Virus genome (UHGV): UHGV-1354558
DNA: 39,910 nt
Strand: one strand, 5' to 3'
Origin: a virus
The notes below the pieces were generated by a model, which did not search any database, had not been told where the DNA came from, and saw only the letters and a list, made by a program, of their open reading frames with translations. Below are positions 8,135 through 8,395 of this stretch, one piece after another (position 1 is the stretch's first letter; every line of letters begins with the position of its first letter). Made by a program: the position numbers and the translations under genes.

Positions 8135-8395
8135 ATGACACACATGATCTTTCGTCATGGCGACATGAAGAAGTGGAAAGGCGTTGGATACGACTTTGAA
8201 ATCGTGAAAGCCGAAGAGCTTCAGGAATATCTGGATGCTGGCTGGTTTGCACATCCCGATGACCTTCTGAAGGATGTTGCAGAGCCAGAGCCAGAGCCAG
8301 AGCCAGAGCCAGAGCCAGAGCCAGAAGAAAAACAGCGTAAAAAGCCTGGTCGAAAACCTAAGGCGGCAGCAGATGAACCTGACAACGAAGGGTGA
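8135..8395 (+). CDS. hypothetical 86-aa protein with (EP)7 repeat and basic C-terminus
   Basis: ATG at 8135 with GGAG 8 nt upstream. [16 protein letters not shown]...[29 protein letters not shown]. Overlaps the start of the gp4 homologue. Confidence 0.4.
8282..8323. repeat. perfect hexanucleotide tandem repeat (GAGCCA)x7
   Basis: Counted directly: seven uninterrupted GAGCCA units. Encodes (EP)7 in one frame and (SQ)7 in the gp4 frame. Confidence 0.95.

Follow-up and report, generated by a model that had tools for sequence, protein, structure and literature searches.

A variable in-frame hexanucleotide repeat in a small gene between the coat and gp4 genes of P22-like phages

Introduction

When a tandem repeat leaves every reading frame open, which frame is translated, and does the repeat hide a second protein? 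We address this question for a locus in the virus genome UHGV-1354558, a stretch of 39,910 nucleotides (nt) referred to here as the window. The window is a Lederbergvirus-type (P22-like) phage of Escherichia coli, approximately 98% identical to phage IME10 in the region of interest. Between its coat protein gene and gp4, the gene for a head-tail adaptor, lies an open reading frame (ORF) of 86 amino acids (aa) in which direct reading of the sequence finds seven perfect GAGCCA units, at positions 8282 to 8323. These units read as (Glu-Pro)7, or (EP)7, in the small ORF and as (Ser-Gln)7, or (SQ)7, in the frame of gp4. The latter frame has no stop between gp4 and an upstream ATG at 8274, which gives an ORF of 199 aa (8274 to 8873) that starts MLQ(SQ)7. 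An initial annotation, made from the sequence alone, had proposed that the repeat has dual coding potential, with gp4 possibly carrying an N-terminal extension. We conclude, with a probability of about 0.8, that the array is a coding variable-number tandem repeat (VNTR) whose copy number fixes how long an acidic Glu-Pro linker is in a late protein of the P22 family that is small and conserved, and that the SQ frame is not coding.

Results

Comparative evidence places the array in the coding frame of a conserved small gene

Tandem Repeats Finder reports the array at 8280 to 8325 (period 6, 7.7 copies, 100% matches, score 92), in agreement with the initial description of an (EP)7 run inside an 86-aa ORF that has its own ribosome-binding site. 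By a simple calculation, perfect hexamer periodicity over 42 nt (approximately 36 matched positions) would be expected by chance about 1e-17 times per 40 kb. The ORF listing also agrees with the initial annotation that the gp4 frame is open upstream to ATG 8274. However, a run of GAGCCA units is stop-free in all six frames, which read EP, SQ, and AR, and WL, GS, and AL, so that open frames through the array are automatic. The SQ frame is open upstream of gp4 because the repeat unit is stop-free in every frame. Two ORFs on the minus strand also run through the repeat (7886 to 8542, 218 aa, with WLWLWL; 8221 to 8436, 71 aa, with GSGSGS); these are artefacts of the stop-free unit and could mislead gene callers.

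The 87 loci compared comprise the window, six phage records, the prophage of ECONIH6, and 80 IMG/VR contigs, which were those that best matched the N-terminal domain of the small protein in tblastn. Each complete locus carries an intact small ORF of 76 to 130 aa. Among the distinct nucleotide variants in the N-terminal domain, 18 of 24 are synonymous in the small-gene frame (75%, versus 19% expected) and six are nonsynonymous, a count biased towards conservation because the loci were chosen by protein similarity; the synonymous share in the other two frames is 8% and 12%. By these sequence comparisons, the EP frame is the frame that is translated and under selection.

The small gene also belongs to an established family. 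Its product matches phrog_1175 over profile positions 1 to 72 of 72 (E 7e-37) and aligns with P22 orf69, epsilon34 gp6, Sf6 gp6, Sf101 gp06, and gp6 of the Proteus phage Brookers. Database searches return 338 to 543 relatives, and a second homologue search with a diverse profile, saturated by near-identical E. coli sequences, added little diversity. P22 orf69 occupies the same slot (AF527608, 6135 to 6344) and overlaps gene 4, and the "gene 6" of Sf6 and of epsilon34, Sf101 gp06, and Brookers gp6 are placed likewise. In all six phages, the window included, the order is coat, terminator, small gene, and gene 4, on the same strand. Two distant members (P0133 and P0125, 37 to 53% identical) are also found between P22_CoatProtein and P22_Tail-4 genes. 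Homology and position mark 8135 to 8395 as a genuine gene, homologous to P22 orf69, to gene 6 in epsilon34 and Sf6, and to hkbT in HK620. The earlier impression that P22 has no gene at this position was wrong; orf69 lies there (AF527608), and the gene is discussed in PMC2629481.

Family members share a plan of an approximately 45-residue N-terminal domain with a GW..HP signature (invariant residues in Table 1), a variable linker, a basic K/R-G-R-K-P-K motif, and an acidic end, with a stop that usually overlaps the gp4 start. The linkers of P22, epsilon34, Sf6, and Sf101 are short and nonrepetitive, whereas a pure, hypervariable (GAGCCA)n array characterizes the E. coli lineage of the window. 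Epsilon34 gp6 differs from the window protein by an inserted WDGH domain. Gene 6 homologues have been described as differing markedly in length, with an internal deletion in the P22 copy, which is nonessential in the laboratory and whose role, like that of the family, is unknown (PMC2629481, citing Eppler et al. 1991). The P22 "internal deletion" corresponds to the WDGH domain (Pfam PF25311, E 1.4e-39; phrog_3769), which is found in epsilon34 gp6 and in some E. coli prophages (M9 and EC05) and is absent from the window protein. The gene family and its length variability are therefore already known, though the published variability is that of the WDGH segment and not of the EP array (PMC2629481).

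Three observations on relatives may be added here. In M9 (L008, 1548 to 2153) and EC05 (L009, approximately 1548 to 2141), the protein is an approximately 200-aa form that consists of the N-terminal domain, the WDGH domain (PF25311), an EP linker of (EP)2-4, and the same tail as in the window protein. The record of phage APSE-1 (L015, AF157835) contains an unannotated plus-strand ORF at approximately 708 to 900, MERKSVFAWSDNAAGYVQAVIVTRDFPEFEKRGFVSSIDEIKTPEKSQEPKKGKRANDDKTAD, which resembles Sf6 gene 6 and is flanked by the coat gene and P27, the homologue of gp4. On the strand opposite to this ORF, the same record annotates P26.

The array changes length in whole units between near-identical loci

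Counted between the flanking residues DVA and EEKQ, the 87 arrays contain 2 to 29 units (mode, 6), and every array is a multiple of 6 nt. The distribution, in units (loci), is 2 (6), 3 (1), 4 (9), 5 (12), 6 (14), 7 (12), 8 (6), 9 (8), 10 (5), 11 (3), 12 (3), 13 (4), 14 (2), 15 (1), and 29 (1). The longest array, that of ECONIH6 (L007, NZ_CP026199.1, 1549 to 1930), is an uninterrupted, in-frame run of 29 GAGCCA units in a 130-aa protein. Arrays are pure, with 565 of the 642 units being GAGCCA. The variant units are GAACCA, GAGCAA, GAGTCA, GAGACA, GATCCA, GAGCCG, GAGCTA, GATCCG, and GAGCCT, and they spread in blocks. In all of them the first residue remains acidic (E or D) and the second is P, Q, S, T, or L, as it is among the 120 listed database proteins of 75 to 98 aa. 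Of 5426 complete E. coli genomes, 217 (approximately 4%) carry the small-gene region.

Array length differs in 9 of the 14 locus pairs that have no differences in 2047 flanking nt, and in all three pairs with one to three flank differences. Gain and loss of whole 6-nt units in the array thus far outpace point changes in its flanks. The array is a coding VNTR, in which any length from 2 to 29 units leaves both the small gene and the overlapping gp4 start intact. The prediction of the initial annotation that the hexamer could change length without a frameshift is thereby borne out, and the comparison of copy number across relatives that it had called for finds a variable number, not an invariant one. 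Length change and block spread are signatures of slippage or unequal exchange, from which we infer the mechanism. The array is not a phase-variable on/off switch, as its unit is 6 nt and the frame is never lost in the 87 loci. Two further variants of the protein lie outside the array: P0010 has a tandem 13-residue duplication at the end of the N-terminal domain, and in P0046 and locus L076 the stop codon is lost, so that 8 extra residues (…NEGGFSSCGIT) run into gp4.

We considered whether the EP array is kept pure and mutable by selection, since linker length might modulate activity or escape from a host factor. The arrays are strikingly pure, as in the 29 identical units of ECONIH6; their lengths differ between otherwise identical loci and are broadly distributed; and the same phage group offers a precedent (PMC3046976). 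However, neutral slippage likewise gives purity and rapid change, and a hexamer unit provides no on/off switching. Moreover, the small gene has no known phenotype and is reported to be nonessential in P22, and the short, nonrepetitive linkers of P22, epsilon34, Sf6, and Sf101 imply that function does not call for a long tunable array. Adaptive tuning of this kind is therefore unlikely, and we give a little less weight still to the idea that the array is a linker-length contingency locus, in which the span from N-terminal module to basic tail would change with copy number and would provide phage populations with standing variation in the activity or host-factor recognition of a late DNA-associated accessory protein. 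Such a locus would recall the poly-psi VNTR of NeuO in phage CUS-3, apart from the on/off switching of the latter.

Comparative evidence places the gp4 start downstream of the array

In a true dual-coding arrangement, some ribosomes would start at 8274, and the resulting gp4 isoform would carry at its N-terminus an (SQ)n extension of variable length. The upstream frame is indeed open from 8274 in the window, and about 83 of the 87 loci keep the upstream ATG and the open SQ frame. Three public phage records annotate gp4 in the extended form, and GAGTCA units, which place ES in the small protein, are synonymous in the SQ frame. However, openness of the SQ frame is automatic for a stop-free unit, and the start itself has no properly spaced Shine-Dalgarno sequence (SD). 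The only candidate, an AAGG that abuts the ATG, pairs at -2.9 kcal/mol with a spacing of 0, equal to the background (mean over all ATGs, -2.7). By comparison, the gp4 SD, AAGG at 8360 to 8363, lies inside the coding sequence of the small gene and pairs at -7.5 kcal/mol with a spacing of 5.

Variation among relatives also tells against an extension. Two loci (L036 and L062) carry a TAG in the extension frame that arises from a GAGCTA unit, which encodes Glu-Leu in the small gene, and in L062 another TAG stands two codons ahead of the gp4 start. The equivalent of ATG 8274 is changed to ACG, silently for the small gene, in two loci (L067 and L069) and is absent from the two WDGH variants (L008 and L009). 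In three loci (L017, L019, and L024), GAACCA makes up the whole array, which keeps EP and turns SQ into NQ.

Evidence from gp4 itself points to the shorter protein. The Pfam P22_Tail-4 profile begins at residue 35 of the 199-aa form. In solved structures of the P22 tail and virion (8tvu, 4v4k, 5gai, and others), the gp4 chains have 166 aa, and their Met1 falls in alignment on residue 34 of the 199-aa form, which is ATG 8373. In the E. coli prophages examined, RefSeq calls made with the Prokaryotic Genome Annotation Pipeline (PGAP) comprise the small gene and a 166-aa gp4. On the sequence evidence, neither a conserved open second frame with its start nor initiation signals at 8274 are present; gp4 starts at 8373, and the SQ frame upstream of it is a by-product of the stop-free repeat. 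Of the initial interpretation, the part that makes the 86-aa ORF a gene of its own is supported, and dual coding through an extended gp4 is not, given the missing spaced SD, the stops and ATG losses, and a Pfam model and structures that start at 8373. The comparative evidence favors initiation of gp4 only at 8373, the outcome that the initial annotation had set against its own proposal, and we regard a functional SQ extension as very improbable.

It is equally hard to credit that the repeat acts as nucleic acid, whether in the mRNA, as a spacer or structure through which coupling sets gp4 translation, or in the DNA, as an array for protein binding, with the peptide incidental: the small gene does overlap, and is probably coupled to, gp4, with the gp4 SD inside its coding sequence, but RNA folding of 8240 to 8400 is no more stable than that of shuffled sequences (z -0.44), Rfam has no family match at the locus, unit variants keep E or D and change mainly in the first two bases of the second codon (P becoming S, Q, T, or L), a pattern that belongs to the protein level, and the protein plan persists in related lineages that have no DNA repeat.

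Predicted architecture of the small protein

The small protein consists of 49 residues, (EP)7, and a further 23 residues. An AlphaFold2 model built from a 15-sequence alignment has a predicted local distance difference test score of approximately 90 for residues 1 to 40 and below 55 after residue 50. The predicted elements are a beta-hairpin (residues 2 to 14 and 17 to 25), a helix (26 to 34), and a short helix (42 to 48). The low confidence for residues 50 to 86 fits an EP array and tail that are extended or disordered.

Sequence and fold searches place the N-terminal domain in sparse company. A fold search of BFVD returned only small uncharacterized phage proteins, and searches of PDB sequences, whether started from the family profile, from the WDGH variant, or from a repeat-module protein, returned nothing meaningful. 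An exhaustive phmmer search over 1.84 billion representatives gave only 24 hits, namely, family members and proteins of 200 to 480 aa in which the motif V..EELQ.YLD.GW..G recurs four to six times. Residues 21 to 40 match this nuclease-associated repeat module with an hhalign probability of 96% (E 2e-9) over only 20 columns. One such protein has GIY-YIG and NUMOD3 matches (P0129), and another has an HNH match (P0134). The window protein thus resembles a module of GIY-YIG and HNH homing-endonuclease-like proteins, for which a DNA-binding role is assumed from context, and it differs from them in having one copy, a longer hairpin, and no nuclease domain. In these proteins (P0129, P0132, P0134, and P0136 to P0144), the module itself spans approximately 35 residues, has the pattern W/Y-I-N-x-G-x(3)-K-x-V-x(3)-ELQ-x-YLD-x-GW-x-x-G, and is present in four to six copies. 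Neither a Pfam model nor a solved structure exists for the module, which may be an undescribed nuclease-associated DNA-binding repeat.

The tail carries a basic, AT-hook-like motif. Its counterparts are KPRKGRKPK in P22 orf69, RKKPGPKPK in epsilon34 gp6, and KRRGRPPK in P0133. The window tail, KPGRKPK (KKPGRKPK), is without the canonical RGRP core and has no Pfam AT_hook hit; RRGRPPK of P0133 scores 14 bits (E 0.047) against Pfam AT_hook (PF02178), below the cut-off of 17.4. The NCBIfam hits of the window protein, to TonB, DnaX, and DarA, are all compositional and fall far short of the cut-offs; a weak hit to PARP is likewise compositional.

Signals and neighbors of the small gene

The features of the locus are collected in Table 1. 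The SD of the small gene pairs with the anti-SD at -6.4 kcal/mol with a spacing of 5, in the range of neighboring virion genes, and the gene overlaps gp4 by 23 nt (8373 to 8395). The hairpin that follows the coat gene is annotated as the terminator "t coat" in Sf6 and as an "RNA stem-loop" in P22; it is the "t coat" element of P22-like late operons, a terminator or attenuator. No promoter-like site was found in 7800 to 8900, and PADLOC defense-system models had no match at the locus.

Two other arrangements were rejected. An upstream GTG at 8087, which some sources use to give a 102-aa form, lies in the coat stop and the terminator hairpin, and homologues all align from ATG 8135. A ribosomal frameshift that would fuse the small gene to gp4 has no suitable slippery site, with gp4 in the +1 frame.

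Table 1. Coordinates of features at and around the hexamer array in the window.
Feature	Position	Strand	Remarks
Coat protein gene (P22 gene 5 homologue)	6795..8090	+	Pfam P22_CoatProtein, E 1.3e-166, full length
Hairpin and T-run after coat gene	8096..8123	+	9-bp stem, 4-nt loop; terminator-like
Shine-Dalgarno GGAG of small gene	8125..8128	+	6 nt before ATG 8135
Small late gene, 86 aa	8135..8395	+	ATG 8135, TGA 8393-8395; full-length match to phrog_1175
N-terminal domain, residues 1-49, predicted folded	8135..8281	+	Beta-hairpin and helix; invariant G36, W37, P41
Upstream ATG of gp4 frame (proposed alternative start)	8274..8276	+	Judged nonfunctional
Coding VNTR (GAGCCA)7	8282..8323	+	Encodes (Glu-Pro)7 linker; Tandem Repeats Finder; predicted nonglobular
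Basic motif, AT-hook-like, noncanonical	8330..8362	+	11 residues; overlaps gp4 Shine-Dalgarno
gp4 (head-tail adaptor/tail accessory factor), 166 aa	8373..8873	+	Pfam P22_Tail-4, E 1.1e-58, from residue 2

Elsewhere in the window, two clusters of 11-nt direct repeats, TTGTCCAACGG and GATTGTCCAAC, with approximately three copies each, occupy 32389 to 32420 and 32453 to 32483. They lie inside a plus-strand ORF of 296 aa (32003 to 32893) and encode a repeated CPTVVQRLS peptide. By analogy with lambda O, these clusters look like origin iterons embedded in a replication-initiator gene.

The repeat distorts gene annotation

In three of the six annotated records, gp4 is extended to 195 to 201 aa and the small gene is omitted: IME10 (L001, NC_019501, including the RefSeq copy), Dewey (L003), and Louie (L005). 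In our view, these extended gp4 calls are errors into which the repeat led the annotation. The ECONIH6 allele with 29 copies is marked by PGAP as an incomplete pseudogene, a call that is probably false and caused by the expansion.

Other irregularities were noted in the same records and genomes. Dewey and Louie carry a 45-aa ORF called across the coat stop and terminator. In M9, PGAP calls only an internal 110-aa piece, and an apparently intact ORF in EC05 is split into two pseudogene fragments. Finally, gp4 is labeled "recombinase RmuC" in APC_JM3.2 and "putative recombinase" in Brookers, labels that look like misannotations.

Discussion

Slippage-driven coding VNTRs are well known, and the array in the small gene reveals no new kind of system. 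A close parallel is neuO of phage CUS-3, which has a 7-nt VNTR with 2 to 93 copies in isolates and is phase variable, with an activity that rises with repeat number (PMC3046976). Both are coding VNTRs in P22-like phages that produce a variable repetitive peptide segment, which in neuO changes by strand slippage (PMC3046976). Unlike neuO, in which a 7-nt unit at the N-terminus acts as an on/off switch, the window array has a 6-nt unit, is internal, and never loses frame.

At the protein level, the acidic EP run followed by a Lys/Pro-rich basic stretch resembles the (Glu-Pro)n-(Lys-Pro)m spacer of TonB. TonB-type EP/KP segments are extended, fairly rigid, polyproline-II-like rods. The likeness does not extend to homology: TonB NCBIfam models score 13.8 to 13.9 bits against residues 47 to 77, the EP/KP stretch only, versus cut-offs of 265 to 315, and the window protein has neither a membrane anchor nor a TonB C-terminal domain and is encoded in the context of a phage late operon.

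Hexanucleotide VNTRs also serve in multiple-locus VNTR analysis (MLVA) typing of enteric bacteria, some of them in prophages (e.g., STTR6 of Salmonella). The array resembles such loci in its short unit and in its rapid copy-number change between near-identical genomes, and to our knowledge the small-gene VNTR is not a described typing marker. The GenBank record of APC_JM3.2 marks a repeat_region at the array, and a limited literature search found no paper describing the EP VNTR.

Taken as a mechanism, the reading of the array as a coding VNTR of the EP frame would involve the following steps. Length changes would arise by slipped-strand mispairing at replication, with unequal recombination possibly contributing. 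The small gene would be transcribed with the late operon through a leaky terminator after the coat gene and translated from its own GGAG, with coupling to gp4 translation through the 23-nt overlap. The protein would combine a folded 45-residue N-terminal module, an extended acidic EP spacer, and a basic KKPGRKPK tail. As to function, we suggest with low confidence that it may be a nonessential late accessory protein of head completion that binds nucleic acid and is made in step with gp4. The EP array would then set the distance between two binding parts, as a spacer whose length is only loosely constrained. This functional assignment, drawn from sequence features, is tentative and considerably less likely than the reading of the array itself.

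Several points weigh against the coding-linker reading and the function attached to it. The selection of loci by protein similarity favors a high synonymous count, as noted above, and the upstream ATG and open SQ frame persist in most relatives, so that on sequence alone rare initiation at 8274 may occur. Some copy-number differences could be assembly errors, though arrays of up to 90 nt are shorter than typical reads. The idea of DNA binding draws on a 20-column match to an uncharacterized module and on a noncanonical basic motif, the conservation of which may partly reflect the embedded gp4 SD, and a fold search found no solved structure that resembles the N-terminal domain.

The main practical value of these results lies in annotation, since the stop-free repeat has produced two artefacts open to correction, the extended gp4 proteins and the ECONIH6 pseudogene. 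The array is also a fast-evolving in-frame marker that could separate otherwise identical P22-like prophages. For the family as a whole, a small gene on record since P22 was first sequenced, and strictly syntenic in P22-like phages, now has a domain plan of folded N-terminal module, spacer, basic tail, and optional WDGH domain, together with the hypothesis that its product may bind nucleic acid.

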